The notes below the pieces were generated by a model. It was given only the letters and a program-made list of their open reading frames with translations, was not told where the DNA came from and did no database searches. The translations under genes were made by a program, and so were the position numbers. Positions 1,541 through 23,210 of a stretch of DNA of 64,000 nucleotides are shown piece by piece. Source of the stretch: a virus; IMG/VR virus record IMGVR_UViG_3300049822_000176, positions 1 to 64,000 of that record. One strand, written 5' to 3'. Numbering within the stretch: position 1 is the stretch's first letter; each line of letters starts with the position of its first letter.

Positions 1541-1542
1541 GG

Positions 1543-5162: not shown

Positions 5163-5204
5163 CGGCGCTCACCCCTTTCCCTGGGTTGGTGTCACGGTCA
5201 GGCG

Positions 5205-6965: not shown

Positions 6966-6980
6966 GTTGTTCCTCCGTGG

Positions 6981-7017: not shown

Positions 7018-7159
7018 TCACGGAGGCTAGCGCATAGCACACGCACTGGCAAAGAGTCAATTCTCTTTACCGGTGCGGTAAACATAATGGTCAGACGCTT
7101 GGAGGGGGCGGCGGCGGGGGTGCCGGACGACGCCTCTTATTGCAACTGCACATTCCCAT

Positions 7160-10393: not shown

Positions 10394-12170
10394 TGCTGCT
10401 CCGAGAGATCGTCGTCAGAAAGCCGGTCGTATCCAAATGCGGGGAAAGCTGCCCGATCGTCAGCTGCCCGAACACACTCAGCCGCGCCTCATACACACCC
10501 GACGTCCCCGGCCGTGTCGCCGTCGCCAGCTTCACCGCCGCATGCGTGAACGGACACGAGTAGGCGTGCTGCGCGCACAGGCTCGGGTGCAGCAACTCCG
10601 GCGGGCGGCCCGTCGAGAACCGGACCGCATGCAGGGCGTTCGCCTGACGCGCCATCCGCGCAGCCCGCTCCTCAGCCGCCGCAGCCTGCGCCGCCCCGTC
10701 CACCGGCGGCGGAGCGCCGGACGCATCCGGCGGCGTCCGATCCTCCGCCGGCTCGTCCGACGCCGGCGTGCCGGCTTCTCCTGGTGGTGCGGCGGCCACG
10801 GGCTGAATGGTGATCTGGTCGCCCGTGAGCTCCGACAGCGCGGACCCGGCACCAGAGGGAAGGGTCTTGATGATGACCTTGAGGCCCTGTTCCTTCAGCT
10901 CCTCCGCTGTCGGCTTGTCCGTCTCGTCGAAACCGGTCTCGCGGCGGAGGGCGTCGCCGTTGATCTCCAGCCGGTCGTACAGCTGGATGGCGTCGTCGGA
11001 GCGGTCGGGGCGCAGGGTCAGTTCGGACATGTCGTACCAGACAACCCAGTTCGCCCAGTCCTCTACGCGGGAGGCCCTGAGGCGCGGCTGAAGGTAGCCG
11101 GTGGTGAGGGCCGCGGAGATGAGTTCGGCGTCGGGTGCGACGTTGACTTTCAGTGATGTCTCGTCGACTGCCCACGCGTTCCAGTGGTTGAGGTCGCCCA
11201 TCCCCAACAGGACTTCGGGGGGCACGTTGAGCTGCGAGGCCAGGCGCTTGATCGCGGAGTCCCGCTTCTCGATGATCTTCTCGTCGATCTTCAGGGTGAA
11301 GTCGATGTGGCGGATCTTCTCGACGTACTCGCCCGGCACCCGGATGGGCATCGGCAGCACGCCCGATGCCGTCCCCGGCTGACTGATCGCCGTGCGCCCG
11401 TTCTCGATCCACTCCTCCATGAACGGGTCCGCGGCGTCAGCGAACTCTTCCCGCACGGGGAAGGTGATCTCGTCGGGGAAGATGACCACTCCGGCCGACG
11501 CGAGGCGCGACAGGTACTGGGCTTGAATGTGCCGGTTGACGAGCTCCAGTTCCCGCATCGTCGAGCGGGCTGCGCGGGCCGGGCTGTCGGCGATGTGGTG
11601 GTAGCGCTTGTTCGGCCGCCATACCCGGATCGGCGCCATGGAGTCGGCGGCGAGGGGCCGCCAGTTCGTTCCGGTGCGGGGACTGTTCTCGTCGATGACT
11701 TCGTAGTGGCCGCGCGCTGCCTGGACTTCGTCGATGGAGCGGACGGACCATTGCTCGATGCCGTTGATGTTCTCGACGATCAGATAGCCCTCGCCGGGGA
11801 CTGCGAGTTGTGTGCCGAGTCCGGCCATGATCTGGGCTTGTCCGGCGACGCCTCCGGCGAACTGCGTCATGAGGTCGACGGCGGTTCCGGCGTCGGTGCG
11901 GACTGGTTCATCGGTGCCGGGCTCCAGCTTCGCGGCGTAGAAGCGGACGCGGGAGAGCATGTTGGCTTCCCAGTCGGCGGCGTACCGGAATTCACCGAGG
12001 GTGTCGTAGTACTCCCAGGCTTCGTTTTGCCAGGCGTCGGGGGTGCGGATGAGTTCGGTGCGGGGGCTGGTGACCGGTGCGGCGGCGGCGGTGACGGCCT
12101 GGGGTTGGGGGTTCGGTGTGGGGCGTGCAGGCACAGGGCCGCGCCGTGTGAATGCGTGGTACCAGGCCAC
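10368..12170 (-). CDS. portal protein
   Basis: 600 aa, GTG start with AGGAGG 5 nt upstream. Its size and its position between terL and the MuF/protease gene fit a portal. The central sequence is portal-like and the tail is acidic/Pro-rich. Confidence 0.8.
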   Translation of the reverse strand: MAWYHAFTRRGPVPARPTPNPQPQAVTAAAAPVTSPRTELIRTPDAWQNEAWEYYDTLGEFRYAADWEANMLSRVRFYAAKLEPGTDEPVRTDAGTAVDLMTQFAGGVAGQAQIMAGLGTQLAVPGEGYLIVENINGIEQWSVRSIDEVQAARGHYEVIDENSPRTGTNWRPLAADSMAPIRVWRPNKRYHHIADSPARAARSTMRELELVNRHIQAQYLSRLASAGVVIFPDEITFPVREEFADAADPFMEEWIENGRTAISQPGTASGVLPMPIRVPGEYVEKIRHIDFTLKIDEKIIEKRDSAIKRLASQLNVPPEVLLGMGDLNHWNAWAVDETSLKVNVAPDAELISAALTTGYLQPRLRASRVEDWANWVVWYDMSELTLRPDRSDDAIQLYDRLEINGDALRRETGFDETDKPTAEELKEQGLKVIIKTLPSGAGSALSELTGDQITIQPVAAAPPGEAGTPASDEPAEDRTPPDASGAPPPVDGAAQAAAAEERAARMARQANALHAVRFSTGRPPELLHPSLCAQHAYSCPFTHAAVKLATATRPGTSGVYEARLSVFGQLTIGQLSPHLDTTGFLTTISRSSNGFAHRSR

Positions 12171-12200
12171 GTGTGCCTCCTGCTCGCTGGTCTGCGGCGC

Positions 12201-12233
12201 AGGGTAGACACGACCCAGGGAAGATCATTCCGG
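12201..12233 (-). promoter_or_regulatory. conserved late element copy C upstream of portal gene
   Basis: The minus strand reads ccggaatgatcttccctgggtcgtgtctaccct, 30 nt before GTG 12170. Confidence 0.5.
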
Positions 12234-12359
12234 GTGTGGGAAGGGGCCGCCTGCGGAACACCGGGCGCAGGCGGCCCCACTCCATCACCAGGGCCCCAAG
12301 CCAGGACCCTGCCCACAGACCGCACAGTACGCGCTGCTACGCCCACTCCTGTCCGGCGA

Positions 12360-12740
12360 TCAGTCGAGCATCCCCAGCGCGCGAGCCACATGCGGCGGCA
12401 TCTGCCGCTCCGCCGTCCTACGCACGGTCTGACTCACCTCATCGATGTCATAGTCAGTTTCAAGTGATCCGCCAGTGACCTCATAGGGGACAGGGTCATC
12501 CCGGCCCAAGTCGTGTCGGTAGGTGATGTAGTCGCGCAGTCGGAACACCGAGGCCGAAGTCTCAAGGAGCGCCCACGCCAGTTCTTCTGGTGTGTGAGTC
12601 AGCAGATGATTGATCACGTCTGCGTCGGTGTGCAGCTTGTCGGCGCAGTTCAACGAGGCCGGGCATCCGCCGTCCACGCCGCACCGGTAGTCGTTCAGCT
12701 CGGTGGCTTCGGTCAGCGGGTCTACGGCGTCAGATTCCAT
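12360..12740 (-). CDS. hypothetical protein
   Basis: 126 aa, acidic. TACAAT (12747..12752 on the minus strand) lies 6 nt upstream of ATG 12740. Confidence 0.6.
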   Translation of the reverse strand: MESDAVDPLTEATELNDYRCGVDGGCPASLNCADKLHTDADVINHLLTHTPEELAWALLETSASVFRLRDYITYRHDLGRDDPVPYEVTGGSLETDYDIDEVSQTVRRTAERQMPPHVARALGMLD

Positions 12741-12769
12741 GCGTCGATTGTATTAACCAGACCGGTGGC

Positions 12770-13192
12770 CTACGCCCACTCCTGTCCGGCCACCAACGCA
12801 CCCGCACCCCACACCGCAACCCACACCAACAACGGCAACGGCAAACCCACCACCGCCCACACCCCGCCCGTCACCCCCGCCGCAATCCAACCCGACGCAC
12901 ACCACGGGCACGAGATCAACTCGGCCAGCCAGAACGGCGAACGCCGCCACCGGCGCACATACCGCTGCCGCAGATCGTCGTCCGGGTCATATGACCACGT
13001 CTCCCGGATGATGGCCTGCGCAGACGGCGACGCCTCGACGTAGCGTTCATGCTCGGCAAGGGTGAGCTCACGCCACCCCCCAGCCAACCGGTCACGCGCC
13101 CACAGCACCGGAGGGAACGTGTCCTCCACCACCAACTTCGTCAGCCGGTACACGGCCAGCGACATCACGAGGAGCAGCAACCACACGCTCAT
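12770..13192 (-). CDS. DUF1360-like membrane protein
   Basis: 140 aa. N-terminal TM segment, CPWCASGW motif and C-terminal TM segments as in the DUF1360 family. The start overlaps the upstream stop. Confidence 0.65.
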   Translation of the reverse strand: MSVWLLLLVMSLAVYRLTKLVVEDTFPPVLWARDRLAGGWRELTLAEHERYVEASPSAQAIIRETWSYDPDDDLRQRYVRRWRRSPFWLAELISCPWCASGWIAAGVTGGVWAVVGLPLPLLVWVAVWGAGALVAGQEWA

Positions 13193-13437
13193 GCCGTCCC
13201 CTCCAGCGCCGCGCTCAGTCGGTCACGCAGCAAAGCCACGTTGTCCCGATCCAACAGCACGTCCTTCGTCGAGCCGTCGCACTCGATACCGAGGCGCACC
13301 TTGTCGTGGAAGGCCGTCACGGACACATCGACAACAGCCGTGGCGCTGCCGTGGCCCTCGTAGTGGGCTGCCGCGCCGTCTTCCGGGACACCCACGATGT
13401 CCGGGCCATCGCCGCCAACCGTCGTCCAGATGCTCAT
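13189..13437 (-). CDS. hypothetical protein
   Basis: 82 aa from ATG 13437 (MSIWTTVGGDGP...), 5 nt after the terL stop. Confidence 0.55.
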   Translation of the reverse strand: MSIWTTVGGDGPDIVGVPEDGAAAHYEGHGSATAVVDVSVTAFHDKVRLGIECDGSTKDVLLDRDNVALLRDRLSAALEGTA

Positions 13438-13442
13438 GCCGG

Positions 13443-14868
13443 TCACCGTAGCCGCCCGCCGAGGATCTGCTTTCTGGCCAGACCACCACCCAACGAACCC
13501 GTGCCGCGCGCAGCCGTCCCCACCAACTTGAGCTGCCACGCCGGCCACACCATCGCGTCGAGTCGATCAGGTGACCAGCCGAGTTCCGGATACCAAGTCG
13601 CGAGCTGGTCCTCCAGTTCGGGGAACACGCCGGCCATATGCCACCGCCCCTGCGCTGCGAGGGCGGCGACGGGCTGCGCGCGCACCACCTTCCCTCGCGT
13701 CGCCGTCACCGTGCGGATCGGGATGTCCACACCGAGCGCCTCCGCCGCCGTCCGCAGCGTCGCCACGGCCATAGCCCCGCCATAGTTGATCTCACACGTG
13801 ATCTCATCGGCTTCCCAGTCGACCGCCGCCTGCACCGCACGACGCCCCCACTGATCCGGCGACAGCTTGCACGACCGGTCATCGAGGACGAAGCCGTGGT
13901 GCTGCGGCCGCTCTTGCGCCTGAGCGCGCACGAGGAGTGCATCTTCGCGGCCCAGCGGCGAACCCGGCAACGCGCTCGGCAGCAGGAGCCCCGACTTCCC
14001 CACGACGACAATGCCCTGCTCCCCGGCCCCGCCCGACGGGTCGACACCGACGGAAATCCTGGTGAGCTCCGGTACCTCGTCGGGCCGGACACGGGTCGCT
14101 TCAAGTGTGGCGCGCGTCCACAGGGCGTCGGTGGCTTCGTCGATGAGCCGGCCTTGGAGTTCCTGCGCGCCGATGTCGGTGCCGGCGTAGGCGTCTTCGA
14201 GGGCGTCCTTCACGGACTGCTCGAGGTGCGGGTTGTCGTACATCGTGGCGTGCGTGTGGACGATGCCGGGGATGTCCCCGCTCAGCATGCGTTTCAGGAG
14301 CGGGCGCGGCTTCGGGGTGGTCGCGGCAATCCAGTGCGGGTGGGGTCCGGAGCGCAGACCGAACCGGAGCTGGTCGTAGGTCTGCTCCATGTACCGCCAC
14401 GTCGCGAACTCCTCCATGACCGCAAGGCACGAGTTGCCCGCCGCGCGCAGTCGCTCCACGTCCTCGGGGGTGTGGGCCCCGAGCAGCTTCGCCTGCGACC
14501 CGTTCGGCCAGCGGATGACGGTACCGCCGGGGGCCTGCACGAGGCGGGCGCCGGGGTCGGCGTTGCGGATGCCGCCGGGCCCTTCGTACATGGAGGTGAC
14601 GCCGTCGCCGATGGTGGGCGCAATGATCGCGATCCAGTGCGGTACGGGGCCGGGGAGGCAGGGGGGTCCGTCGACGTGCTGGCGGACGTACTCGGCGCAG
14701 GCTTTCGACTTGCCGGCTCCTCGGTAATCGACCGGCCATCAAAAGCCAGCCGGTCCAATCACCTCCCGGGGGGATCTGGTGGGGTTGTGGTTGCCAGCGC
14801 GGCTTGAGGTGGGCGGCGAGGAGTTCGGCGGCGCGTTGCGCTACGCGGGCCTTGTCCTCTGCGGTCAT
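13443..14868 (-). pseudogene. terminase large subunit, reading frame broken at 14725..14738 (needs a +1 shift)
   Basis: - The N-terminal frame (ATG 14868) reads MTAEDKARV...PPGGDWTGWLLMAGR, then junk.
- The next frame reads (stop)WPVDYRGAGKSKACAEYV...MYEGPGG..., with the P-loop and the nuclease half running to 13443.
- No start codon lies upstream of the P-loop in the second frame. Confidence 0.8.
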
Positions 14869-14875
14869 GCTTCGG

Positions 14876-14908
14876 ATTGTGACGGTTGTTGGGCGAGGTG
14901 TTGTCCGG
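14876..14908 (-). promoter_or_regulatory. degenerate late element copy F (CCGGA-N22-CACAAT), 7 nt upstream of terL ATG
   Basis: The minus strand reads ccggacaacacctcgcccaacaaccgtcacaat, then ccgaagc, then ATG. The CCGGA-to-CACAAT spacing matches copy E. Confidence 0.35.
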
Positions 14909-14911
14909 AGG

Positions 14912-15496
14912 TCAGCGGCGGCGGGCGTCTCCTCGGTTGGGGAGTCCGGCGGAGTTCAGGCCGTGATGGTGCCATGTCCAGCTGCGGCGGGGGAGGTGGA
15001 CGATGTGGGCTCCGGCGGCAACGCAGCCGAGGGTGAAGGCGTAGTCCTCGCCGGACACCTGGGTGTTCGGGTCGCGGGTGAAGCCGACCTGTTTGGCGAG
15101 TTCGGTTCGGACGAGGATGGTGATGGTTGTGCTGTTGGGGCAGGTGGGGTCGAAGGTGCGGCCGTAGAACATGGGGAATGGGTCGGTGCCTCCGTGCACG
15201 CGGAACCACGGGTACACGTAGTCGGCGCCGGTCTCGGACGCGTGGGCGAGGAGGTGTTCGATGTGGTCGGGGTCCATCTCGTCGTCGCTGTCGAGGAACG
15301 CGGTCCACTCTGTCTGGACGAGGTGGAGGCCGTGGGCGCGGGTGATGGCCGCGCCGAGGTGGTGGATGTCCTCGGCGAGGATGTGTTCGACGGGCACGGT
15401 CTGCGCGCGGACTGAGCGGGCGCACCGGTCGAGCATTCCGTTCGCGCGCCGCTGCTCATGGAACGGCGTCACGACCGTGACACCTGGCTTGATCAC
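14912..15496 (-). CDS. glycosyltransferase family 2 (small GT-A)
   Basis: 194 aa. VTVVTPFHEQ... and a DSDDEMD (DxD) motif. The start overlaps the upstream stop. Confidence 0.7.
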   Translation of the reverse strand: MIKPGVTVVTPFHEQRRANGMLDRCARSVRAQTVPVEHILAEDIHHLGAAITRAHGLHLVQTEWTAFLDSDDEMDPDHIEHLLAHASETGADYVYPWFRVHGGTDPFPMFYGRTFDPTCPNSTTITILVRTELAKQVGFTRDPNTQVSGEDYAFTLGCVAAGAHIVHLPRRSWTWHHHGLNSAGLPNRGDARRR

Positions 15497-16065
15497 CGCG
15501 TTTGCTCCGCGCGCTCAGCGAGCCATCGCCGGACAACCTGGTTGTGGCGGGCGTCTGCGAGCGCGTCATGCTCACTGCCCTCCTGCTTGGGGAGTTCGCC
15601 CCAGGCGATGCCGAGGCGGCGGGCTTCCTGCTGGATGTCGTGGGTGAACATCGGCACGCCCGGCGGCAGATCCACCATCAGCCCCCACAGCCAGCAGAGG
15701 CGGACGTGGTCGTAGGCGCCGTAGTTCGCCCACAGTTCGACGTCGTCGGTGGACTGGATGAACGCGGCGACTTCGCGGGCGATCTGCGCCTGCGGCTTCA
15801 CGCGCGGGTCGGCGTAGTGGAACAGCCAGCGTTTCGACATGCTGTTCCGCATGTCGCCGTGACCCTTTGGGAGGTGCGGTACGACGTTCTTCATCAGCCA
15901 CTTGTGGCGTCGGATGCGTCGCACGGGCATGTCCCGGTTGGCCGCGTAGTACTCGCGGCCGTCGTCGGCGACGAGCGCGATGCTGATCAGCTCGATCGTG
16001 TACCGCTTCCGCAGCCAGCCCGTCCGGTACTCGATGAACTCCAGGTCGTAGTCGATCGCGCTCAC
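15493..16065 (-). CDS. Rv2179c-like DEDDh 3'-5' exoribonuclease
   Basis: 190 aa from GTG 16065 (GTGA overlap). IDYDLEFIE...ISIALVADDGREYYA...WANYGAYDHV...SEHDALADA matches the exonuclease motifs of that family. Confidence 0.65.
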   Translation of the reverse strand: MSAIDYDLEFIEYRTGWLRKRYTIELISIALVADDGREYYAANRDMPVRRIRRHKWLMKNVVPHLPKGHGDMRNSMSKRWLFHYADPRVKPQAQIAREVAAFIQSTDDVELWANYGAYDHVRLCWLWGLMVDLPPGVPMFTHDIQQEARRLGIAWGELPKQEGSEHDALADARHNQVVRRWLAERAEQTR

Positions 16066-16502
16066 CGGGGCGTGCCCTTCCAGAGGATCTCGTTGTCGCC
16101 CTGGATCAGCAGCTCGTGCGTGGTCCAGTACTTGATCCCGTAGTCCGCATTCGCCGCGAACGACCCGTCGAAGTAGTGGAACGACGGGATGCACCAGAAG
16201 GAGACGTGCGTCGGGTCCGCGAACGCGTGCCACGTCCCCGACAGGGCGTTCGGCACCCGGATCTCGAACACGCCACCCGGGCGCAGCACCCGGTGCGCTT
16301 CGTTCATCACGTCGATCCGCGGCTGCCCGGCCGGAATGTGCTCCATCACATGCGACGCCCGGATCGCGTCAATGCTGCCGTCCGCTGCAGGCCACGGGAC
16401 TTGCTGTGCTTGCCGCTGCCATTCGCCGCGCCCGTGGGCGGGGTCGAGGTTGATCCACCCGGCCTGGACGAGGTGACCGCCACCGATCTCTATGCTCGTC
16501 AT
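16062..16502 (-). CDS. class I SAM-dependent methyltransferase
   Basis: 146 aa from ATG 16502 (ATGA overlap). IGGG...NLD...SIDAIRASHVMEHI...VLRPGGVFEI is Methyltransf_11-like. Confidence 0.7.
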   Translation of the reverse strand: MTSIEIGGGHLVQAGWINLDPAHGRGEWQRQAQQVPWPAADGSIDAIRASHVMEHIPAGQPRIDVMNEAHRVLRPGGVFEIRVPNALSGTWHAFADPTHVSFWCIPSFHYFDGSFAANADYGIKYWTTHELLIQGDNEILWKGTPR

Positions 16503-17170
16503 CCGTGCCTCGCACTTCCTTGATAGGCCAGCCACGGCGTGGCCAGATGATTCCCCGGCAACGCCTGCGGGCGCAGCCCCATGTTCCGTAGCGCGAACGG
16601 CTGGGAGATCTGATCCTGGAACGACCAGGCGTGGGTCTCCGCGACCCAGCCCGCACCCAGCTCCCGCACCGCATCGGTGTGCCGGCGCGCGATCACGCCG
16701 GTCGCCCACAACCCCCAGCCCTCCGGATGCCCGGCCGCCCGATACGAGTCGGCCTGCTGGAGTACCGGCTCTCCCGCATACTTAGACAGCCCGGCCGACT
16801 CCTTCGCCTCCGCGTACAGGCAGTCCCGCCACGGATGGACGAACTGGGCGATCGGCTCGACGTCCGTCAGCCCGGCCGTGGCCTCGACGGCGAACCGGTC
16901 GGAGACCACCCGGAACGACGCATCCACCCACAAGCTGACGGGTGCGCTGGTGTACTTCCATGGCTCGTACTTGGGGTGCTTCGCCGCCCGGTTCGGATGC
17001 ACGCCCGGCCGCGGCTCGTACACCAGCGTCCAGCCCTGTGCGGCTTCGGCGTCGGGCGGAGTCCCGTCGTGGACGCAGATCCATTCGACGTCCACGCCGG
17101 CCTGCGGGAGGACCGGCTTCAGCTCGTCGTACCCGTCGTAGATCGCGGTGATCAGCGCAACTTGGCTCAT
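16499..17170 (-). CDS. DUF616-type glycosyltransferase-like protein
   Basis: 223 aa from ATG 17170. VALITAIYDGYDEL...NRAAKHPK...LWVDASFRVV...VHPWRDCLYAEA...FQDQISQPFAL follows the DUF616 pattern. Confidence 0.65.
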   Translation of the reverse strand: MSQVALITAIYDGYDELKPVLPQAGVDVEWICVHDGTPPDAEAAQGWTLVYEPRPGVHPNRAAKHPKYEPWKYTSAPVSLWVDASFRVVSDRFAVEATAGLTDVEPIAQFVHPWRDCLYAEAKESAGLSKYAGEPVLQQADSYRAAGHPEGWGLWATGVIARRHTDAVRELGAGWVAETHAWSFQDQISQPFALRNMGLRPQALPGNHLATPWLAYQGSARHG

Positions 17171-17982
17171 GCCGGAGACCGATACCACTCCACCGTCGCC
17201 GCCACACGCGCCCAGTCGTGTTCCGGCTTCCAGTCCAGCCGATCCCACCCATCCCCCGCGGCGACGATTCGCGTCGGGGTTTCACCCGTCCGCATCGGGA
17301 GATGCTCCACCCCCGCCGAAGATCCCGTCTCCTCCAGCACGAACGCGGCCAGCTCGTTCACCGTGACCGCCACCCCCGTGCCCGCGTCGAGGGTGACGTC
17401 GTCGCCGTGACCGGTCGCCTCCACCAGCATGCGTGCCACGTCGTCGGTGTGGACGAGGTCCATGGTCTGCTCGCCGTCGCCCCACACCGGGAGCGGGCGG
17501 CCCTCCCACGCGGCGCGCGCGAAGGTGGGCAGGATCTTCTGCGGGTGGCCGGGACCCCACTTCTGGCCGGGGCCGTAGGCGTTGAACGCGCGGACGTGGG
17601 AGACGGGGATGCCGTAGGCGGTGTGCCAGGCCGTCGCGAGACGGTCGGCGCAGACTTTCGTCGCCGTGTACACGGAGGGGAACACGGGCGGCATGGTGAT
17701 GCCGACGTATCCGGCGCCGTGCTCTTCGCACCAGCGGAGGATCCGCAGGGTGCCGATGACGTTGGCGTGGACGGCGGACTCCGGCGCGTCGAACAGCTCC
17801 GACGTGCCGAGCATCCCCGCGAGATGGATGACGGTGTCCGCGCCGGCCAGATGGGAGAGGTCGCCGAGGATGTCGTTGCCGTGCGCCCGGTCGAACGACC
17901 ACGCCTCATGGCCGGCGTTCTCGGCGGCGTGGATGGTGGCCTGTCCGAGGAAGCCGGACCCGCCGGTGACTGCGATCTTCAC
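17167..17982 (-). CDS. NAD-dependent sugar epimerase/reductase (extended SDR)
   Basis: 271 aa from GTG 17982 with AGGAG upstream. It has GGSGFLG (the Rossmann motif) and YTATK (YxxxK). Confidence 0.8.
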   Translation of the reverse strand: MKIAVTGGSGFLGQATIHAAENAGHEAWSFDRAHGNDILGDLSHLAGADTVIHLAGMLGTSELFDAPESAVHANVIGTLRILRWCEEHGAGYVGITMPPVFPSVYTATKVCADRLATAWHTAYGIPVSHVRAFNAYGPGQKWGPGHPQKILPTFARAAWEGRPLPVWGDGEQTMDLVHTDDVARMLVEATGHGDDVTLDAGTGVAVTVNELAAFVLEETGSSAGVEHLPMRTGETPTRIVAAGDGWDRLDWKPEHDWARVAATVEWYRSPA

Positions 17983-17995
17983 TGGTGTCTCCTGT

Positions 17996-18673
17996 TCACC
18001 ACGGGGTGCGGCCCCACTTGATGCGGAAGGTCTCCCGGTCGCGGCCTGCCTGCTCGCGGAGCTCGGGCCGCTCCTGCGTCGAGATGTTGGGGCAGCGGTG
18101 CTCCACCGGGATCCCGGGCACGAGGAGCGCGCCGCCCTGCTCGCGGGCCGTCCAGTCGGCCGAGTCGTCGCCGTACCACCAGGCGAGGTCCTCGTCGAAG
18201 CGCTGGCCGTGCTCGCCGCGCAGCATGAAGGCGTAGCCGGTGATCCGCTGCCGCAGATCGATCGGCTCGGCTTTCGTGTGCAGGATCTGCCGGCGGCCGC
18301 CGTGCTGGTCGGGGTAGGCGAGGACGGCCGTGGTGGCGCGCATCGCCTTCGACAGCGTGCTGATCCAGCCCGGAGGGACGGTGACGTCGGAGTTGAGGAC
18401 GGCGATATCCCACGCCTCCGCGCGCGCAAGGTGGGCGCCGGCGTCGGCGAGGGCCAGGCCGACGTTCCACAAGGTAGAGATGTTCGGCGGGTCGATGGGC
18501 ACGCGGGCGACCGCGACCTTCCCGTGCCAAGGGTCGGGGTCGATGGCCGGCGAGGACAGGTTGTCGATGACGATGACCCGGTCGACCTGGTCGATCACGG
18601 AGTTGATGCAGTCGGCGAGCATGTCATGCCGATCACGGGCGGGGACGACCGCCACCCGATGCACGGCGCTCAC
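17996..18673 (-). CDS. glycosyltransferase family 2-like
   Basis: 225 aa from GTG 18673 (GTGA overlap). VAVVPARDRHDMLADCINSVIDQVDRVIVIDN... is a GT-A-like N terminus. Confidence 0.6.
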   Translation of the reverse strand: MSAVHRVAVVPARDRHDMLADCINSVIDQVDRVIVIDNLSSPAIDPDPWHGKVAVARVPIDPPNISTLWNVGLALADAGAHLARAEAWDIAVLNSDVTVPPGWISTLSKAMRATTAVLAYPDQHGGRRQILHTKAEPIDLRQRITGYAFMLRGEHGQRFDEDLAWWYGDDSADWTAREQGGALLVPGIPVEHRCPNISTQERPELREQAGRDRETFRIKWGRTPW

Positions 18674-19332
18674 GCGGTGGCCGCCTGGGTGTGCAGGGCC
18701 GCCCGCAGTAGCGAGTCCGGAGTGCCCATGTCCGACCACACCCCAGGCACTTCGCGCACGTCCATCAGGCCGCGCCGCAGGTACCAGTTGTTGACGTCGG
18801 TGATCTCCAGCTCGCCCCGCGGTGACGGCACCAGCGTCCGCACCACGTCGAACACCCGGTCGTCGTACACGTACAAGCCGGTGACCGCGAGATCCGACAC
18901 CGGGTCCTTCGGCTTCTCCACGATCCGCCTCACCCCAGCATCGAAGATCCCGAACGCTTCCGGCCGGTCCGTCCGGCTCGTATAGATCGCCGGGCCGCCC
19001 GGCATGGTGAAGTCGGCGGAGAAATAGTTGTCGCCGAGGATCACGGGGAACAGGCCGCCGACGTAGCCCTCCGCGAGGGCGAGCGCGCCCGCGATGCCGT
19101 CGGGCTGCTCCTGCACCCGGTAGGTGAACCCGGAGCCGAGGAGCTGCGCGAACCCGCCGACCTGCTCGCCGCCGGTGATGATGAGGATGTCCGTCACGCC
19201 CATCGTCCGGAGCGTGGCGATGGGGTGGTAGATCATCGGCCGGTCGTAGACGGGCAGCAGATGCTTGTTCACGACCCGCGTCGTATCGCCGAGGCGGGTG
19301 CCTCGGCCGCCCGCGAGGATGACGCCCCTCAC
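18670..19332 (-). CDS. rmlA: glucose-1-phosphate thymidylyltransferase-like nucleotidyltransferase (short form)
   Basis: 220 aa from GTG 19332 (GTGA overlap). GVILAGGRGTRLG...NKHLLPVYDRPMIYHPI is the RmlA signature. Confidence 0.75.
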   Translation of the reverse strand: MRGVILAGGRGTRLGDTTRVVNKHLLPVYDRPMIYHPIATLRTMGVTDILIITGGEQVGGFAQLLGSGFTYRVQEQPDGIAGALALAEGYVGGLFPVILGDNYFSADFTMPGGPAIYTSRTDRPEAFGIFDAGVRRIVEKPKDPVSDLAVTGLYVYDDRVFDVVRTLVPSPRGELEITDVNNWYLRRGLMDVREVPGVWSDMGTPDSLLRAALHTQAATA

Positions 19333-20354
19333 GACTGCACCAGCATGTTCAGCCACGCCGGGCGCGCCGTGTACCAGTCGACGATGTCTGTAAGGGTTTC
19401 CTCCAGCGATCGGGACGGCCGCCAGCCTGCGTCGGCGAGCTTGCGGCCGTCGAGGGCGTACCGCAGGTCGTGACCGGGCCGCGACGCGTGGAACGACACC
19501 AGCTCGTACTTCAGGGGCTTGCCGATGATGTCGGCGATGATCTGCGCGACCTCCAGGTTGGAGCGTTCCTCACCGACGATGTGCCACAGCGACGGCCGGT
19601 CGTCGTCGGGGTAGCGCTGCGGTTCCGTGTGCTGGAGGAGGTGCAGCCACGCCCCGGCGAAGTCGCGGGTGTCGATCCAGTACCGGGAGCCAGGGATGCC
19701 GTCGGGGCTGGAGTAGATCGGCACGGTCTCCCCGGCAAGGACCTTGCGGATCACCGTCGGCACGAGCTTCTCCGGGCCTTGGCCGGGGCCGATCAAATTC
19801 ATGGTGCGGGTGAGGACGACCGGCAGGCCGTAGGTGCGCCACCACGCGGTCGCGAGAGACGACTGTGCGGCCTTCGACGCGGCATACGGGTTGGACGGGA
19901 TGATGGGGTCCCATTCGCGGTGCGCATAGCCTGCGGGGGCCGGCCCGTACACCTCGTCGGTGTCCATGTGGAGGAACACCTTGGGCTGGACTTGGCGGGC
20001 GTATTCCAGCAGGTTGACCATGAGTTCGGTGTTGTTGCGGACGAAGCGGGCGGGGTCGGCGATGGATTCCTCGACGCCGCTGTTGGAGGCGATGTTGAGG
20101 ATGTAGTCGACGGGTCCGATGTCGTCGATGAGGGTGGCGGGCATGGGTGTGGCGAGGTCGTGCATGACGGTGGTGACGCGGTGGTTCCATGCGCCGGGTT
20201 CGGGGGCTTGGTCGAGGGCGTCGGCGAGGCGTTGGGAGTTGCCGTGGTGGCGGAGTGTCCAGGGGCAGACGATGTCGGCGTCGGTGTGGGTGAGGAAGTG
20301 GGCGAGGACGTGGGAGCCGACGAATCCCGCGGCCCCGGTGAGGAGGATGCGCAT
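19329..20354 (-). CDS. rmlB: dTDP-glucose 4,6-dehydratase
   Basis: 341 aa. It has TGAAGFVGSH, DTDEVYG and YAASK motifs, and is the first gene of the cassette. Confidence 0.8.
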   Translation of the reverse strand: MRILLTGAAGFVGSHVLAHFLTHTDADIVCPWTLRHHGNSQRLADALDQAPEPGAWNHRVTTVMHDLATPMPATLIDDIGPVDYILNIASNSGVEESIADPARFVRNNTELMVNLLEYARQVQPKVFLHMDTDEVYGPAPAGYAHREWDPIIPSNPYAASKAAQSSLATAWWRTYGLPVVLTRTMNLIGPGQGPEKLVPTVIRKVLAGETVPIYSSPDGIPGSRYWIDTRDFAGAWLHLLQHTEPQRYPDDDRPSLWHIVGEERSNLEVAQIIADIIGKPLKYELVSFHASRPGHDLRYALDGRKLADAGWRPSRSLEETLTDIVDWYTARPAWLNMLVQS

Positions 20355-20361
20355 GCGGGGG

Positions 20362-20394
20362 ACGGTAGACAGCCGCCCGTGAAGATCATTCCGG
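20362..20394 (-). promoter_or_regulatory. conserved late element copy D, 7 nt upstream of rmlB-like ATG
   Basis: The minus strand reads ccggaatgatcttcacgggcggctgtctaccgt, then cccccgc, then ATG 20354. It starts 2 nt after the terS stop. Confidence 0.5.
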
Positions 20395-20395
20395 G

Positions 20396-20950
20396 TCAGG
20401 TGGTACCGCTGCTGCCCGCGCCCAACAGGTGCTGGTGTGCTGCGCCGAGCGCTAGCCTGCGCTGCTCGTGATCCAAGTCCAGGGCGTCCAACGCCGCCGA
20501 CAACGCGGCCGCCACCAGCTCGCCCTCCAGGTCTAGGCGGCGTTCCAGGGCGACCATCACGCCCGCGTCGACAGCCTGTTTCGCGGTGACGGCGGCGAGC
20601 CTGCGCTCGTCGCGGGACTGCTTCAGCCAGCCCACCACATCCCGCGGCGGGTTCAGGGGATCACCACCCTCCGCGATGTGTTCCCTCAGGCGTTCGGTGA
20701 TGATCGTGTCGACGTAGGCGGCCCGGTTCGTCGCGGTACGCACCAGTCCGAGGAGCGCCTCGTGGGGGGTGATGTTCTGCTCGGCGGCGATCTCTTGTGC
20801 CATGGCCCAGGCCTCTTCGACTTGTGGGTGTTTGCCGCGGTGCCAGACGCAGGCGCCGAGGCCGGGATGCTGGGTGCCTTGGCCGGCGCGGTGGGAGCAC
20901 ATGCGGCCGTTGGCCTGGCGGGTGGGGCAGCGCGCCGGGTAGACGGTCAT
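20396..20950 (-). CDS. terminase small subunit (zinc-ribbon type), putative
   Basis: 184 aa. N-terminal C-x..-C...GTQHPGLGACVWHRG motif and a helical C-terminal half, as in actinophage small terminases. It heads the packaging genes. Confidence 0.55.
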   Translation of the reverse strand: MTVYPARCPTRQANGRMCSHRAGQGTQHPGLGACVWHRGKHPQVEEAWAMAQEIAAEQNITPHEALLGLVRTATNRAAYVDTIITERLREHIAEGGDPLNPPRDVVGWLKQSRDERRLAAVTAKQAVDAGVMVALERRLDLEGELVAAALSAALDALDLDHEQRRLALGAAHQHLLGAGSSGTT

Positions 20951-20956
20951 GGGTGG

Positions 20957-20989
20957 ATTGTGGCCCGGCCAGGTCCGGTGATCTTCCGG
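20957..20989 (-). promoter_or_regulatory. late element copy E (CCGGAAGATC variant ... CACAAT), 6 nt upstream of terS ATG
   Basis: The minus strand reads ccggaagatcaccggacctggccgggccacaat, then ccaccc, then ATG 20950. Confidence 0.4.
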
Positions 20990-21000
20990 TGGACGCGTGT

Positions 21001-21033
21001 GTGGCCCTATCCCGGGTGTCGGGGTAGGGCCAC
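21001..21033 (-). terminator. imperfect 14-bp hairpin between the 296-aa gene and terS
   Basis: gtggccctatcccg / cggggtagggccac (13 of 14 paired) with a 5-nt loop, read directly. Confidence 0.4.
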
Positions 21034-21055
21034 AGGCGGGCGGGGTGGGGTTGGT

Positions 21056-21946
21056 CTACTCGTCGGCGTGGTGTCCGGTCCATTCGACGCCGGAGACGAC
21101 GCCGGTGCGTGCAGTGCCGACGAAGGTGGGGGCCCAGCCGTCGGCGATGAACTTGGCGGCCGTGGCCTGCGGTACCCAGCGGTCGCCGCGCGCCGGGTCG
21201 GACATCCACGCTGCGAGTTCGTCGGCCGTCCGGAAGACGGGGCTGATCGGGGAGCCTTCGGTCACGGTTTCCCACAGTTGCCAGCCGTCGCCTTTCGGTG
21301 GGTCGGTGGGCTCCCATGCTTCGGCGTCGGCACGCTGCCCGGGGTAGGTCTCGATGGTGGCGTGGCCGTCGCAGGTCTGGCAGGTGGGGTTGACGCCTTC
21401 GCGTTCGCAGCGGGCGCTGACGGCGACGCTGGCGTTGATGGCGTCGTGGCCGAAGCCGGTCAGGGACCACTCGTTGACCTGTGCAGCAGTCGGAACGACG
21501 GCAGGCTCCTTGGGCTGCCAGCCGTTCTCGCGGGTCCACGTGTGGGTGAAGTCGTGGAGGCGTCCGGCCTCGACGAGGGCGTCGACGTCGTCTTGGGAGA
21601 GGTGGTGCAGCCAGCCGGTGTTGAAGTGGTCGGCGAGGCGTTGGGCTTCGCGGGCGATGGCCGTCTCACCTTTGCCGTAGTAGTCGGGTGCGTCGGTGAT
21701 GTTGCGTTCGGCGCGGGCCCGGATGGCGGGGGTGTCGGCGCGCCATGGGGTGGAGCCGGTGCTGGTCGGGTCGAAGGGGATCTTGCCGTACCAGAGGTCG
21801 TGCAGGTTCTCTGCTTGCGGGGAGTAGCCGGTCTTGCAGTTGGGGCAGGGCTGGCCGTCGAGGGTGTCGGGGCTGAGGAAGCCTTCCCAGATTTTGTTGA
21901 GGGGCCAGTCGAAGTCGGCGGGTACTCGGCGGATTTCGCGTCCCAT
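21056..21946 (-). CDS. hypothetical protein (Cys-containing, conserved-looking)
   Basis: 296 aa, AAGGAGAG before ATG 21946, with a protein-like W/D-rich sequence. Confidence 0.65.
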   Translation of the reverse strand: MGREIRRVPADFDWPLNKIWEGFLSPDTLDGQPCPNCKTGYSPQAENLHDLWYGKIPFDPTSTGSTPWRADTPAIRARAERNITDAPDYYGKGETAIAREAQRLADHFNTGWLHHLSQDDVDALVEAGRLHDFTHTWTRENGWQPKEPAVVPTAAQVNEWSLTGFGHDAINASVAVSARCEREGVNPTCQTCDGHATIETYPGQRADAEAWEPTDPPKGDGWQLWETVTEGSPISPVFRTADELAAWMSDPARGDRWVPQATAAKFIADGWAPTFVGTARTGVVSGVEWTGHHADE

Positions 21947-22042
21947 GCGGGCTCTCCTTGCGGGCGGTGGCGGGTTCGAGGCTACGGCGGCAGGCGGTGG
22001 TGGTGTGCCCGGTCTCGCGACAACGACAGGGCGGGGGCGGGG

Positions 22043-22471
22043 TCAGGCGCGGCGGGAGCGCTGCTCGTAGGCGTTCCGGTACGGCTGTTCGTGCTTGCGG
22101 ACTTCTTCGGCGATCTTCTCCGCGAGTTGCGCGCCGACCAGCCCCCGGAACCGCTCGGCTTCCTGCATGTCGATGGCGACGCTGTACTTGCTGTACAGCA
22201 GGGATTCCGGGTCGGGGCCGATGCCGTAGGTGAGGTCGGCTTCGATGGTGTCGTCGTCGGGGCCGGGCCGCAGGTCGATGTTGTAGACGCGGGCCTCCTT
22301 GCCGTCCATGTCGGGGTCGGTGAACTCGGCGAAGCCGCTCATGCCGTCACGGGTGATGTGCGGGGGTGTGCCGGGGTAGCCGTAGTGGAGGGGCTGGAGT
22401 TCGAAGCCGAGCCCGCACGCTTCGAGGGCGGTGGCGGCTTCGAGGATGGCGTGGGCTTGACGCAGGCGCAT
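22043..22471 (-). CDS. hypothetical protein
   Basis: 142 aa ORF-track frame with balanced composition. Confidence 0.6.
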   Translation of the reverse strand: MRLRQAHAILEAATALEACGLGFELQPLHYGYPGTPPHITRDGMSGFAEFTDPDMDGKEARVYNIDLRPGPDDDTIEADLTYGIGPDPESLLYSKYSVAIDMQEAERFRGLVGAQLAEKIAEEVRKHEQPYRNAYEQRSRRA

Positions 22472-22503
22472 GGGTCATCCTGTCGTGAGGGTGCGGGCGG
22501 GGG

Positions 22504-22638
22504 TCACGCGTCGTTCATGCGGCGAATCTGGCGGAGGGCGGCCCGCCGGACACCGTGGTCGAAGCGGGTCCAGCCGTGACGGCGCAGGCGAGCCTCGGCG
22601 AGGATGCGGCGGGCTTCCTCGGGGATCGGGTCGGACAT
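22504..22638 (-). CDS. small hypothetical protein (44 aa)
   Basis: Below the track size cutoff. ATG 22638 is preceded by AGGAG. It translates as MSDPIPEEARRILAEARLRRHGWTRFDHGVRRAALRQIRRMNDA. Confidence 0.45.
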   Translation of the reverse strand: MSDPIPEEARRILAEARLRRHGWTRFDHGVRRAALRQIRRMNDA

Positions 22639-22699
22639 TCGGGGACTCCTAGGCGTTGGGGCGGCGGGCTGGTTCGTCTGCTGCGCCGTGGAGTTGGTC

Positions 22700-23083
22700 T
22701 CAGGCCGCCTCCTGGTACGAGGAGGCGAGCAGGTGGCGGGTGCCCTTGTAAGCCTGGAGGCCGGCGTAGAGGGCGGGGTCGATGGGGCCGTAGGCGTAGA
22801 CGTGGTTCCACTTGCCGGTGGTGCGGTGCTGCGCCCACACCCGGATGGGGCTGCCGCCGTGCGTCTCGCGGTAGGCCTTGGCGACGTGCCGGCCGAGCCA
22901 GGAGATCTTGCCGTCGGGGAGATCGCTTCCGCCGATGCGGGTGAGGAAGCCGGTGATGAGGATGAGCCGGCCCTGCTCGACGGCTGCGGCGACGAGGCCG
23001 CTGAGGGTGCGGTAGGCGAGGGCTTTGGGGGTGGCGGCTGCGGCGTAGAGGCCGTTGCGGCGGGTGCGGGTGATGGCGTTCAT
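22700..23083 (-). CDS. hypothetical protein, first gene of the leftward late-side operon
   Basis: 127 aa. Its start faces the divergent control region 23084..23210. Confidence 0.6.
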   Translation of the reverse strand: MNAITRTRRNGLYAAAATPKALAYRTLSGLVAAAVEQGRLILITGFLTRIGGSDLPDGKISWLGRHVAKAYRETHGGSPIRVWAQHRTTGKWNHVYAYGPIDPALYAGLQAYKGTRHLLASSYQEAA

Positions 23084-23099
23084 GTGGTCCCCCTCGTTC

Positions 23100-23167
23100 G
23101 ACTGCCAACTTTGTTGACGTCTTCAGTGTGGCAGAGGCGGGGCGAGACTGCAACATAGTTGGCAGTC
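23100..23167. promoter_or_regulatory. operator-like inverted repeats in divergent intergenic region
   Basis: GACTGCCAACT (23100..23110) and its exact complement AGTTGGCAGTC (23157..23167). A third half-site AGTTGGC lies at 23180..23186, and TTGACG at 23114..23119. Confidence 0.45.
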
Positions 23168-23210
23168 ATTCGTCTAGAAAGTTGGCGGCGGTCCGTGAGA
23201 CCATGCCCCT

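Follow-up and report, generated by a model that had tools for sequence, protein, structure and literature searches.

Organization of the locus

The window, i.e. the whole 64,000-nucleotide stretch that was analysed (positions 1 to 64,000 of IMG/VR record IMGVR_UViG_3300049822_000176), carries on its minus strand, from 20354 to 14912, eight co-oriented genes, here called the cassette, with the large terminase gene (terL) directly 3' of them. The genes were delimited by GC3-based gene calling, and the calls match independent JGI/Logan calls on identical contigs. An integrase gene at 55325..56611 marks the phage as temperate. The features are listed from high to low coordinates, with a distal glycosyltransferase (GT) gene last:

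20951..20989, minus strand: promoter-like element of the 184-aa gene, CCGGAAGATC...CACAATCCACCC then ATG, of the terL-element type
20396..20950, minus strand: g184, a conserved 184-aa protein (phrog_3678, 'unknown function', its sole PHROG match)
20362..20395, minus strand: promoter-like element of the cassette, CCCGGAATGATCTT-N10-CTGTCTACCGT, ending 7 nt before the first cassette ATG
19329..20354, minus strand: RmlB-like NDP-glucose 4,6-dehydratase, 341 aa (PF01370 + PF16363)
18670..19332, minus strand: short RmlA-like sugar-1-phosphate nucleotidyltransferase, 220 aa (PF00483, E=1.6e-38)
17996..18673, minus strand: GT2a, a GT-A family 2 glycosyltransferase, 225 aa (PF00535, 31 bits, above cut-off)
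17167..17982, minus strand: SDR2, a short extended-SDR sugar-nucleotide epimerase/reductase, 271 aa (PF01370, E=9e-29)
16499..17170, minus strand: DUF616/TOD1_MUCI70 protein, 223 aa (PF04765, 25 bits, above cut-off)
16062..16502, minus strand: small class I SAM-dependent methyltransferase, 146 aa (PF13489 + PF08241; phrog_6636 'methyltransferase')
15493..16065, minus strand: Rv2179c/RNase-AS-like 3'-5' exoribonuclease, 190 aa (PF16473; phrog_2259, E=9e-46)
14912..15496, minus strand: GT2b, a GT-A family 2 glycosyltransferase, 194 aa (PF00535, 48 bits; phrog_14775, E=4e-43)
14869..14911, minus strand: promoter-like element before terL, CCGGACAAC-N18-CACAAT-CCGAAGC-ATG
13443..14868, minus strand: terL, large terminase gene (Terminase_6N/6C, PF03237 + PF17289; phrog_2)
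62274..63323, minus strand: distal GT, GT-B-like, 349 aa (phrog_7162, E=1e-30; sub-threshold PF13524)

The initial annotation had described eight co-oriented genes mostly joined by GTGA or ATGA, and such 4-nt overlaps are indeed present at six of the seven internal junctions (at GT2a, for instance, the GTG start codon and the preceding stop share the sequence GTGA), the remaining junction being a 13-nt gap with a GGAGA motif; the genes are thus translationally coupled. Its eight domain calls were all recovered when Pfam, PHROG and NCBIfam were each used, the per-ORF profile searches returning sugar-nucleotide enzymes, GTs and a methyltransferase. No cassette protein contains a hydrophobic 19-mer above 1.7 on the Kyte-Doolittle scale, and neither a flippase nor a membrane GT is found in the cassette; its proteins are all soluble.

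terL starts 43 nt downstream of GT2b, and its closest curated relatives are those of the Streptomyces phages OnionKnight and mu1/6. In both phages terS is adjacent to or overlaps terL, in the slot held here by the cassette. The terL of the window is disrupted by a frameshifting insertion of 7 nt (approximately 14725..14731), directly before the Walker A codons (RGAGKS), and is spread over two reading frames. This insertion is missing from 18 of 18 relatives, and the insertion-bearing sequence recurs in contigs from two JGI samples.

The gene on the other side of the cassette had been taken for terS, a positional guess that no search supports. g184 has no Pfam or NCBIfam match, Foldseek found nothing in PDB or BFVD that matches its AF2 model (pLDDT 79), and there is no similarity to the terS proteins of the closest terL relatives. 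Its family has 942 representatives, and weak matches to a terS PHROG were obtained for only two of 74 members. Its invariant residues C8, C18, H28, C34 and H37 form a Zn-ribbon-like part ahead of long helices, making it a Zn-ribbon plus coiled-coil protein. Distant homologues are encoded after the primase/helicase module, and no terL occurs within 4.5 kb of them. A late regulator and some other DNA-binding protein are equally open readings.

Sugar-nucleotide enzymes

The first two steps of the bacterial dTDP-6-deoxyhexose (Rml) pathway are represented in the cassette, with the characteristic motifs GGxGTRL (GGRGTRL in the RmlA-like protein), TDE and YxxxK (both in the RmlB-like protein), and the top PDB matches of the RmlB-like protein are all dTDP-glucose 4,6-dehydratases, over its full length. 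In contrast to the enzymes of that pathway, both proteins fall well short of the NCBIfam equivalog cut-offs: the RmlB-like protein reaches 208 bits against TIGR01181 (cut-off 365 bits), and the RmlA-like protein, which is without about 50 C-terminal residues of RmlA, reaches 185 bits against TIGR01207 (rmlA) over model positions 1-236 of 286. The nucleotide carrier is probably dTDP, UDP being a second possibility.

The cassette also differs from the Rml pathway in having neither RmlC nor a recognisable RmlD, and in their place stands the unclassified 271-aa SDR2. The reported absence of an RmlC-type 3,5-epimerase holds, since each of the eight cassette ORFs has an assignment other than an RmlC-type cupin. 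What had been concluded from it, namely a 6-deoxy-D-hexose product over L-rhamnose, is unsafe, because SDR2 has no assignable specificity and bifunctional epimerase/reductases are among its matches. SDR2 carries GGSGFLG and YTATK motifs and has no NCBIfam equivalog; its best solved-structure matches in PDB are 4,6-dehydratases, 4-epimerases and Pal (its neighbours are Pal, DesIV, MoeE5 and GalE), and bifunctional epimerase/reductases of the GDP-fucose synthase type match it more weakly.

Glycosyltransferases, methyltransferase and exoribonuclease

GT2a and GT2b are each 57% identical to proteins of KimJongPhill, gp109 ('glycosyltransferase') and gp107, respectively. In this phage and in Zuko (Streptomyces Zukovirus), gp107-109 form a GT-methyltransferase-GT cluster with the same gene order; unlike the cassette, it is placed close to the right end of the genome, surrounded by small hypothetical genes and away from terL, it is accompanied by no RmlA/RmlB-like, SDR or DUF616 genes in the stretch examined, and its methyltransferase has no detectable similarity to that of the cassette. 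The AF2 model of the DUF616/TOD1 protein (pLDDT 85, pTM 0.86) matches the GT-A enzymes B3GNT2, ABO GT6, alpha3GalT and WrtF with a Foldseek probability of 1.0, and on this modelled fold the protein can be regarded as a GT-A-fold glycosyltransferase.

The additional GT-B gene that had been pointed out at the far end of the window does match a phage GT family, its GT-B Pfam match being sub-threshold, and has no sequence relative in PDB. The gene is kept within the phage family, where it closes the late operon approximately 24 kb downstream of terL, and it was detected on the cassette-bearing IMG/VR contigs. A similar co-occurrence is seen in Arthrobacter phage Atuin, where gp165 (36% identical to the distal GT) lies 3 kb from gp169, the GT2b homologue (37% identical).

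For the exoribonuclease the domain call stands (its 123 bits against NF033638 are under the cut-off, and it is 43% identical to Che8 gp101). Membership in the sugar chemistry is not supported, as among the relatives the gene occurs in a single genome (L016), which marks it as an accessory passenger.

Conservation across the phage family

A cassette lies between a g184 homologue and terL in all 20 related IMG/VR contigs, as well as in a prophage of Streptomyces sp. NBC_00444. Chance would be far from producing such a gene set, given that 21 independent related genomes keep its order and position. The family core consists of GT2a-SDR-TOD1-methyltransferase-GT2b plus the distal GT-B, with the methyltransferase present in all relatives and SDR2 in 19 of 20; RmlA/RmlB-like genes, the exonuclease and HNH homing endonucleases are accessory. 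SDR2 being core and the RmlA/RmlB-like pair accessory, the substrate of SDR2 need not come from that pair. The cassette is therefore a core gene set, unlike a moron, and the idea of a recent insertion implied by calling it 'wedged' between the terminase genes has to be abandoned: it is ancestral and family-wide, in the same place in all 20 relatives. The family is frequent as Streptomyces prophages, including those of S. scabiei, S. caniscabiei and S. canus.

Promoter-like elements

The spacing between the cassette element and the ATG corresponds to a leaderless-type layout. The claim that the cassette has its own copy of a late element is borne out, as the element is a genuine repeat, found again on the same strand at 12201..12234 and 598..631 with 24-26 of 33 positions matching, and a CCGGAATG-type element after g184 is kept in 15 of 19 relatives, whichever gene is first. 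A further copy had been assigned to terL (14876..14908); as a sequence repeat this is poor, with only 12 of 33 ungapped positions shared with the cassette element, whereas the architecture is the same (CCGGA, about 22 nt, nAnnnT, 7 nt, ATG). Given that CCGGA[AC]-N21-[CG]ACAATCC-N4-5-ATG is found upstream of terL in 16 of 16 relatives, the terL element appears to be a real but divergent member of the class.

We scanned for CCGGA-N20-24-nAnnnT-N6-8-ATG before ORFs of at least 50 aa and obtained six matches, compared with 0.75 in shuffles. A CCGGAA-type element is found in front of g184, the cassette, terL and another structural-region gene, in each case with its end 6-8 nt from the ATG; a related copy lies upstream of the portal gene. 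Neither a sigma-70 consensus promoter nor a convincing terminator was found between 23600 and 12000. Because these genes have the element in common, the cassette probably belongs to a late regulon, its timing being read from sequence motifs alone.

Possible functions of the cassette

Our tentative preference is for a late-expressed glycan module whose most likely acceptor would be virion proteins, analogous, not orthologous, to the systems of mycobacteriophages Corndog and Che8. The CCGGAA-type promoter would give a transcript beginning at the first ATG of the cassette or close to it. The RmlA-like enzyme would convert glucose-1-phosphate to NDP-glucose, the RmlB-like enzyme would convert this to NDP-4-keto-6-deoxyglucose, and SDR2 would reduce, or epimerise and reduce, the latter to an NDP-6-deoxyhexose; in family members without their own RmlA/RmlB, SDR2 may work on a host-made precursor. 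GT2a, the DUF616/TOD1 protein, GT2b and the distal GT-B would then build a short oligosaccharide, O-methylated by the small SAM methyltransferase, on concurrently made capsid and/or tail proteins, giving glycosylated particles, with the exoribonuclease gene as an unrelated passenger.

Glycosylated particles have reportedly been demonstrated for mycobacteriophages Che8, Corndog and Myrna. Capsid and tail-tube glycosylation is attributed to the Corndog and Che8 enzymes in the passages of PMC12363180 and PMC11256854 that cite Freeman et al. 2023. The likeness lies in clusters of several soluble GTs plus a methyltransferase in phages of actinobacterial hosts: Corndog gp35-38, a methyltransferase and three GTs, are flanked by gp34 and the major head gene within the head-assembly operon, and Che8 gp108-110 come shortly before the genome's packaging end. 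In contrast, the present cassette adds RmlA-like, RmlB-like, SDR and DUF616-type genes and lies directly upstream of terL. There is no orthology to experimentally proven enzymes: nothing matches Corndog gp35-38, and GT2b resembles Che8 gp108 at the GT2-superfamily level only. A crude test showed no obvious Ser/Thr-rich C-terminal tail in the virion proteins of the window. Chloroviruses and mimiviruses encode both nucleotide-sugar synthesis (4,6-dehydratase plus SDR epimerase/reductase) and GTs that decorate their own capsids. The cassette is similar in combining the two functions, but the giant viruses infect eukaryotes, with unrelated gene sets in much larger genomes, compared with 5.5 kb in a tailed phage.

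One may also consider, as an unlikely alternative, that the target of the cassette is a cell-wall glycopolymer or a surface glycoprotein of Streptomyces, e.g. the phage's own receptor, whose decoration would block superinfection of lysogens or keep progeny phages from adsorbing again to debris and lysing cells. The phage is temperate and its family common as prophages, so a role in lysogenic conversion can be entertained; the cassette has a promoter-like element of its own, and polysaccharide biosynthesis is where enzymes of the GT2 and DUF616 families are typically found. Moreover, soluble GT-A enzymes such as the prophage-encoded TarP glycosylate teichoic acids. Nevertheless, the cassette lies well inside the late packaging/head operon, away from int/att, and it is core and position-fixed and not a variable moron. 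Its promoter type recurs before terL, and the portal gene has a related copy upstream. It also lacks a membrane GT, a flippase and polyprenol-phosphate GT features. The Gtr (GtrA/GtrB/GtrC) cassettes of temperate enterobacterial phages likewise include a GT2-family enzyme, here possibly altering surface glycans; they differ in their GtrA flippase, membrane-anchored bactoprenol GT and GtrC, and in their position adjacent to int/att, and no Gtr-type membrane parts were found here.

Glycosylation of modified phage-DNA bases near packaging, as a means of evading restriction or other DNA-targeting defences, is improbable. The cassette does adjoin the packaging ATPase gene, known DNA-modifying systems use both GT-A and GT-B folds, and there are phage GT clusters, reported from structural-gene neighbourhoods, by which 5hmC is hypermodified with mono- to trisaccharides (bioRxiv 10.1101/2023.12.21.572611). 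Yet no base-activating enzyme was seen among the window ORFs screened with Pfam (some small ORFs and approximately 7 kb of the genome lie outside this screen): cytosine (C5-)methyltransferase, TET/5mYOX and dCMP/dUMP hydroxymethylase, hence DNA-hydroxymethylation genes, were not found, and the sole methyltransferase is the 146-aa protein of Methyltransf_11/23 type. The earlier statement that no hydroxymethyl-pyrimidine synthase-like gene is seen thus agrees with the lack of a thymidylate-synthase-like hydroxymethylase among these ORFs, and ranking virion proteins and host envelope ahead of DNA was reasonable.

Streptomyces natural-product clusters contain deoxysugar tailoring sub-clusters of an NDP-deoxysugar synthase, a ketoreductase-like SDR, a methyltransferase and GTs. 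Despite this resemblance and the Streptomyces hosts, it is very doubtful that the cassette glycosylates or methylates a host metabolite, e.g. an anti-phage anthracycline or aminoglycoside, to neutralise a chemical defence, as natural-product GTs are almost always GT1-family GT-B enzymes and three of the four GTs here are GT-A (the fourth having the weak GT-B assignment given above), no precedent is known in phages, and a late-operon position fits poorly with protection that is needed early.

Overall, the observations of the initial annotation are partly confirmed and its interpretation partly supported, with virion proteins as our tentatively preferred acceptor. A widespread family of temperate Streptomyces phages thus carries, just before its packaging gene, genes for deoxy-sugar activation and for sugar attachment and methylation.

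Genes of the cassette and the proposed pathway

Each of the eight domain assignments made for the cassette in the initial annotation was recovered by Pfam, PHROGs and NCBIfam. The genes and their two flanks are as follows.

Genes from g184 to terL
20396..20950, minus: g184, 184-aa protein
19329..20354, minus: RmlB-like 4,6-dehydratase, 341 aa, with TDE and YxxxK motifs
18670..19332, minus: short RmlA-like nucleotidyltransferase, 220 aa
17996..18673, minus: GT2a, a GT2 protein, 225 aa; PF00535 above cut-off
17167..17982, minus: SDR2, an extended SDR, 271 aa; PF01370, no equivalog
16499..17170, minus: DUF616/TOD1_MUCI70 protein, 223 aa; PF04765 above cut-off
16062..16502, minus: class I SAM methyltransferase (MT), 146 aa; PF13489, PF08241
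15493..16065, minus: Rv2179c/RNase-AS-like exoribonuclease, 190 aa; PF16473, phrog_2259
14912..15496, minus: GT2b, the second GT2 protein, 194 aa; PF00535, phrog_14775
13443..14868, minus: terL, Terminase_6N/6C; starts 43 nt past GT2b

The genes had been described as mostly joined by ATGA/GTGA overlaps, and indeed six of the seven junctions are 4-nt overlaps of this kind, the seventh being a 13-nt spacer with GGAGA. The top PDB matches of the RmlB-like protein are all dTDP-glucose 4,6-dehydratases, across its full length. It scores 208 bits against TIGR01181 (cut-off 365), and the best NCBIfam match of the RmlA-like protein, TIGR01207, gives 185 bits against a cut-off of 361, covering model positions 1-236 of 286. 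Judged by these scores, both are divergent members, far under the NCBIfam equivalog cut-offs. PDB sequence searches with GT2a, GT2b, TOD1, MT and the product of a GT-B gene at 62274..63323 (minus strand) returned nothing useful. In its AlphaFold model (pLDDT 85, pTM 0.86) the DUF616 protein resembles GT-A-fold transferases (Foldseek probability 1.0), and on account of this match we count three GT-A enzymes in the cassette; they are clustered and translationally coupled with the one SAM methyltransferase, the GT-B gene lying distally.

The pathway that we infer, from sugar activation to O-methylation, would begin with the RmlA-like and RmlB-like enzymes making NDP-4-keto-6-deoxyglucose, which the SDR would then reduce, or epimerise and reduce; in family members without their own RmlA and RmlB, the SDR would act on a precursor supplied by the host. 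The three GT-A enzymes and the distal GT-B would build a short glycan, to be O-methylated by the methyltransferase. From the apparent absence of RmlC, the product had been proposed to be more likely a 6-deoxy-D-hexose than L-rhamnose. There is indeed no ORF for an RmlC-type cupin in the cassette, and, in departure from the Rml pathway, neither the RmlC 3,5-epimerase nor the RmlD 4-reductase is recognisable there (SDR2 matches the NCBIfam rmlD model at no better than E=6e-4). The lack of RmlC nevertheless leaves room for an L-sugar, because the SDR has dehydratases and 4-epimerases among its solved relatives, as well as, at weaker similarity, bifunctional GDP-fucose synthases.

Genome setting

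The window has a G+C content of about 70%, and every frame therefore contains long spurious ORFs. By third-position GC analysis, the true genes of 1..23100 are on the minus strand, and our gene calls are the same as independent ones on 100% identical metagenome contigs (JGI 3300049585 and 3300049586; Logan SRR35933081). A plus-strand ORF antisense to the cassette (17621..18985, 454 aa, with coding-like GC3) was rejected as a gene, every domain match falling in minus-strand frames; antisense ORFs like it are found in relatives too, and since their positions shift we judge it a high-GC artefact.

Other genes of the window mark the phage as temperate and tailed. Besides those listed, they include virion genes (head-tail adaptor, major tail protein, tail fibre) and genes for WhiB, RecT/YqaJ, an RNase_T-family exonuclease, HNH and DUF5131.

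Other genes of the window
5205..6965, minus: major head protein, 586 aa
10368..12170, minus: portal
55325..56611: tyrosine integrase

Two further proteins have unusual matches. A 1077-aa protein encoded after the portal (7160..10393, minus) has no Pfam match; its N-terminus matches a PHROG annotated "RNA ligase" and its C-terminal half matches PHROGs annotated "portal protein", "head maturation protease" and "virion structural protein". In the tail-fibre-like protein (2394..3575, minus), residues 1-86 match a PHROG annotated "polysaccharide deacetylase", and this part is possibly a glycan-directed receptor-binding or depolymerising domain.

A fixed component of a Streptomyces phage family

The cassette had been regarded as wedged between terS and terL, which would imply a recent insertion. 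We compared 20 IMG/VR contigs (30-79 kb), each encoding a 66-78% identical 184-aa protein, and in all 20 a sugar cassette lies between the 184-aa gene and terL. The same layout is present in a prophage of Streptomyces sp. NBC_00444, whose 10.8-Mb chromosome (CP107916.1) carries it at about 1.42-1.44 Mb. In the relatives, terL is followed by a phrog_781 gene and then, where the retrieved locus reaches, by the portal gene. The GT-B-like gene, too, is found across the family: the contigs that bear the cassette also bear this gene, some 24 kb downstream of terL, where the late operon ends. Given a layout so constant, the cassette is no recent insertion; on this comparison it is a fixed, ancestral component whose tailoring periphery varies.

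The family core is GT2a-SDR-DUF616-MT-GT2b, with the SDR replaced by a second methyltransferase-like gene in one relative (locus L012). The RmlB-like gene is either missing or belongs to one of two clades, both with TDE and YxxxK, and the RmlA-like gene is found in about half of the relatives. Among the family loci compared, the exoribonuclease gene occurs only in the window and in L016, and an extra GT2b-like gene in L016, L020 and L021. Several family cassettes are broken up by HNH_3 homing endonucleases and small ORFs, a pattern that marks the cassette as a hotspot of selfish elements.

Some individual loci deserve mention. HNH_3/NUMOD4 homing endonuclease genes sit at differing cassette junctions (L022, 11698..12234; L024, 8043..8636; L009, ~10820..11616). 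In L010 (~5950..6010) the first cassette ORF opens with MRGVI, the N-terminus of the RmlA-like gene, and then runs directly into GT2a, which looks like a deletion scar left by the loss of the nucleotidyltransferase. In L013, L017, L023 and L027 (7666..7977 in the last), the 184-aa gene and the RmlB-like gene have between them a conserved 103-aa ORF that has no Pfam match.

DUF616 homologues at least 65% identical are encoded in the chromosomes of S. scabiei, S. caniscabiei, S. europaeiscabiei, S. canus and others, and we therefore take the host to be Streptomyces and the family to be common. Prophages of the family are present in S. scabiei, S. caniscabiei and S. canus, and it is also found in many soil metagenomes. 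There is no close cultured relative, since megablast of 13-23 kb against GenBank phages gave no match; among curated phages, none of which is close in DNA sequence, the closest terL proteins are those of Streptomyces phages mu1/6 and OnionKnight (41% identity).

The 184-aa protein and terL

The designation of g184 as terS found no support in Pfam, NCBIfam, PHROG, BLASTP or Foldseek searches. It has no match in Pfam or NCBIfam, its PHROG (phrog_3678) is of "unknown function", BLASTP against terS of OnionKnight and mu1/6 gave E>2, and its AF2 model, which has an N-terminal Cys/His cluster followed by long helices, matched nothing in PDB or BFVD by Foldseek. Tblastn against curated phages likewise backed neither terS nor another function. 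The g184 family has 942 representatives; when Pfam and PHROG were run on 74 diverse members, two weakly matched the terS family phrog_9231 (E ~2e-4). In the cassette-bearing family, going upstream from terL, g184 is the first gene that is not a sugar gene. In Arthrobacter phage TripleJ its homologue lies two genes short of the genome end, terL being gene 1, and distant homologues follow a primase/helicase module, terL not being found within 4.5 kb of them. On these comparisons g184 may be terS, a late regulator or something else. In OnionKnight and mu1/6, terS abuts or overlaps terL, and the cassette therefore occupies the slot where terS would be expected.

In the window, terL is interrupted by 7 nt (TCGATTA as read on its coding strand, ~14725..14731) inserted between the codons for GWLLMAG and Walker A RGAGKS, a change that shifts the frame. 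The insertion is also present in contigs of two JGI samples. We rejected a programmed frameshift, since the insertion is absent from 18 of 18 relatives, each of which has one intact ORF of about 454 aa. With terL broken in this manner, the window genome may be a packaging-defective (pro)phage. Larger terL insertions occur in L009 (~830 nt, 15239..16068, after query residue 104) and in L020/L021 (~970 nt, 18475..19448, after residue 396), and may represent group I introns, inteins or insertions of homing endonucleases.

Promoter-like elements

The cassette had been credited with its own copy of a late element, and this 33-nt stretch (20362..20394) does recur at 12201..12233, upstream of the portal, and at 598..630. 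It belongs to a family of CCGGAA-type promoter-like elements.

CCGGAA-type elements
20951..20989, minus: before g184
20362..20395, minus: before the cassette
14869..14911, minus: before terL
12201..12233, minus: upstream of the portal
598..631, minus: before the gene at 590

The pattern CCGGA-N20-24-nAnnnT-N6-8-ATG precedes four real gene starts, i.e. g184 (20950), the cassette (20354), terL (14868) and the gene at 590; a scan gave 6 matches in total, against 0.75 in shuffles. The second copy claimed for terL is real in that its architecture, CCGGA[AC]-N21-[CG]ACAATCC-N4-5-ATG, is kept upstream of terL in 16 of 16 relatives, but in sequence it diverges from the cassette copy (12/33 identity). 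Past g184, 15 of 19 relatives have a CCGGAATG-type element, its 3'-half existing in two variants, and it is there whether the RmlB-like gene, the RmlA-like gene or GT2a comes first. The cassette thus has an element class in common with terL and g184, a related copy being found upstream of the portal.

In most elements the -10-like hexamer is a fixed 6-8 nt from the ATG, which suggests leaderless transcripts, a transcript type common in Actinobacteria. A scan of 12000..23600 for sigma-70 consensus promoters (TTGACA-type -35) and intrinsic terminators yielded nothing above chance. We read the cassette region as a probable late regulon, transcribed from more than one internal start, and the conserved elements are candidates for defining such a regulon with leaderless transcripts. 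The GGAA(T/C) box of the elements resembles the -35 boxes of ECF sigma factors; the screened window ORFs included none recognised as a sigma factor.

What the glycan may be attached to

We tentatively favour virion proteins as the acceptor, at somewhat short of an even chance, because the cassette lies inside the packaging/head operon, its genes form the family core, its promoter class is late-type and it has no membrane or flippase parts, and because there are actinophage precedents and related modules recur. The precedents are Corndog, with a methyltransferase and three glycosyltransferases between gp34 and the major head gene, and Che8, with gp108-110 just ahead of the packaging end. For both phages, glycosylation of capsid and tail-tube proteins is reported (Freeman et al. 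2023, as cited in PMC12363180 and PMC11256854). Like actinophage systems of the Che8/Corndog/Myrna type, the cassette clusters phage-encoded glycosyltransferases with a methyltransferase, which such systems usually have. The related modules are in Zukovirus Streptomyces phages, which have a GT-MT-GT trio as in the cassette (glycosyltransferases 57% identical), and in the 194-kb Arthrobacter phage Atuin, where a cluster (4391..9672 of its retrieved locus) combines a GT-B (36% identical to that of 62274..63323) and a GT2b homologue (37%) with another glycosyltransferase and a small nucleotidyltransferase. This suggests that GT-B plus GT2b is a recurrent module in unrelated actinophages.

Some points count against virion proteins: the proven enzymes are not orthologous, acceptor tails are not evident and late expression is deduced from sequence. 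Orthology to Che8 gp108-110 or Corndog gp35-38 was rejected, phmmer and BLASTP giving only a match of GT2b to Che8 gp108 (E ~1e-6, ~70 residues), and a scan of the window's virion proteins for Ser/Thr-rich tails, a crude proxy for O-glycosylation sites, revealed no obvious acceptor.

Modification of the host envelope, which a temperate phage common as a prophage might well practise, we consider unlikely. Gtr serotype-conversion cassettes have a GtrA flippase, a membrane-anchored GtrB and a polytopic GtrC next to int/att, whereas none of these is in the cassette, which lies some 35 kb away from the integrase gene and in which no protein has a transmembrane-like segment (maximum Kyte-Doolittle 19-mer hydropathy 1.62).

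It is very improbable that the cassette makes no virion coat but acts as a chemical counter-defence or packaging-linked modifier, the phage-made methylated 6-deoxyhexose going to a non-protein target. That target could be a host-produced anti-phage metabolite, or phage DNA through base activation without a hydroxymethylase. Such a role, if true, would account for the presence, in a family of Streptomyces phages, of a complete sugar-activation pathway beside the packaging genes. Glycosylation of DNA is slightly more improbable still, no base-activating enzyme having been found: as had been noted, no hydroxymethyl-pyrimidine synthase-like gene is seen in the window, and neither a dCMP/dUMP hydroxymethylase nor a C5-MT with a TET-like dioxygenase was detected among the Pfam-screened ORFs of the window, a set that covers the genome except for about 7 kb and some small ORFs. 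Small-molecule tailoring is the least credible reading, the glycosyltransferases being of GT-A type, not GT1.

Implications

Phage-encoded virion glycosylation and Rml-type enzymes are already known. To our knowledge, the former has been shown so far only in a few mycobacteriophages, and there it shields particles from antibodies. Three features are new: autonomous sugar activation is combined with a methyltransferase and three GT-A enzymes that are non-orthologous; the set is fixed in place immediately upstream of terL; and it occurs in a Streptomyces prophage family that is large and as yet undescribed. We searched the literature for the family and for DUF616 in phages, and nothing relevant came up. 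A nucleotide-sugar supply of its own is unusual among tailed phages. The family may also be a source of compact deoxysugar, glycosyltransferase and methyltransferase parts for glyco-engineering.

Since cultured lysogens exist, the hypothesis is open to direct testing, and the family offers natural "knock-outs", in that some members lack RmlA/B and others have an additional methyltransferase or glycosyltransferase. If the cassette does coat virions, the range of self-glycosylation would be widened by a large family of temperate Streptomyces phages, as yet uncharacterised, with enzymes non-orthologous to those of the mycobacteriophages, and in soil such a glycan coat may serve particle stability, adhesion, or evasion of host surface or defence factors.
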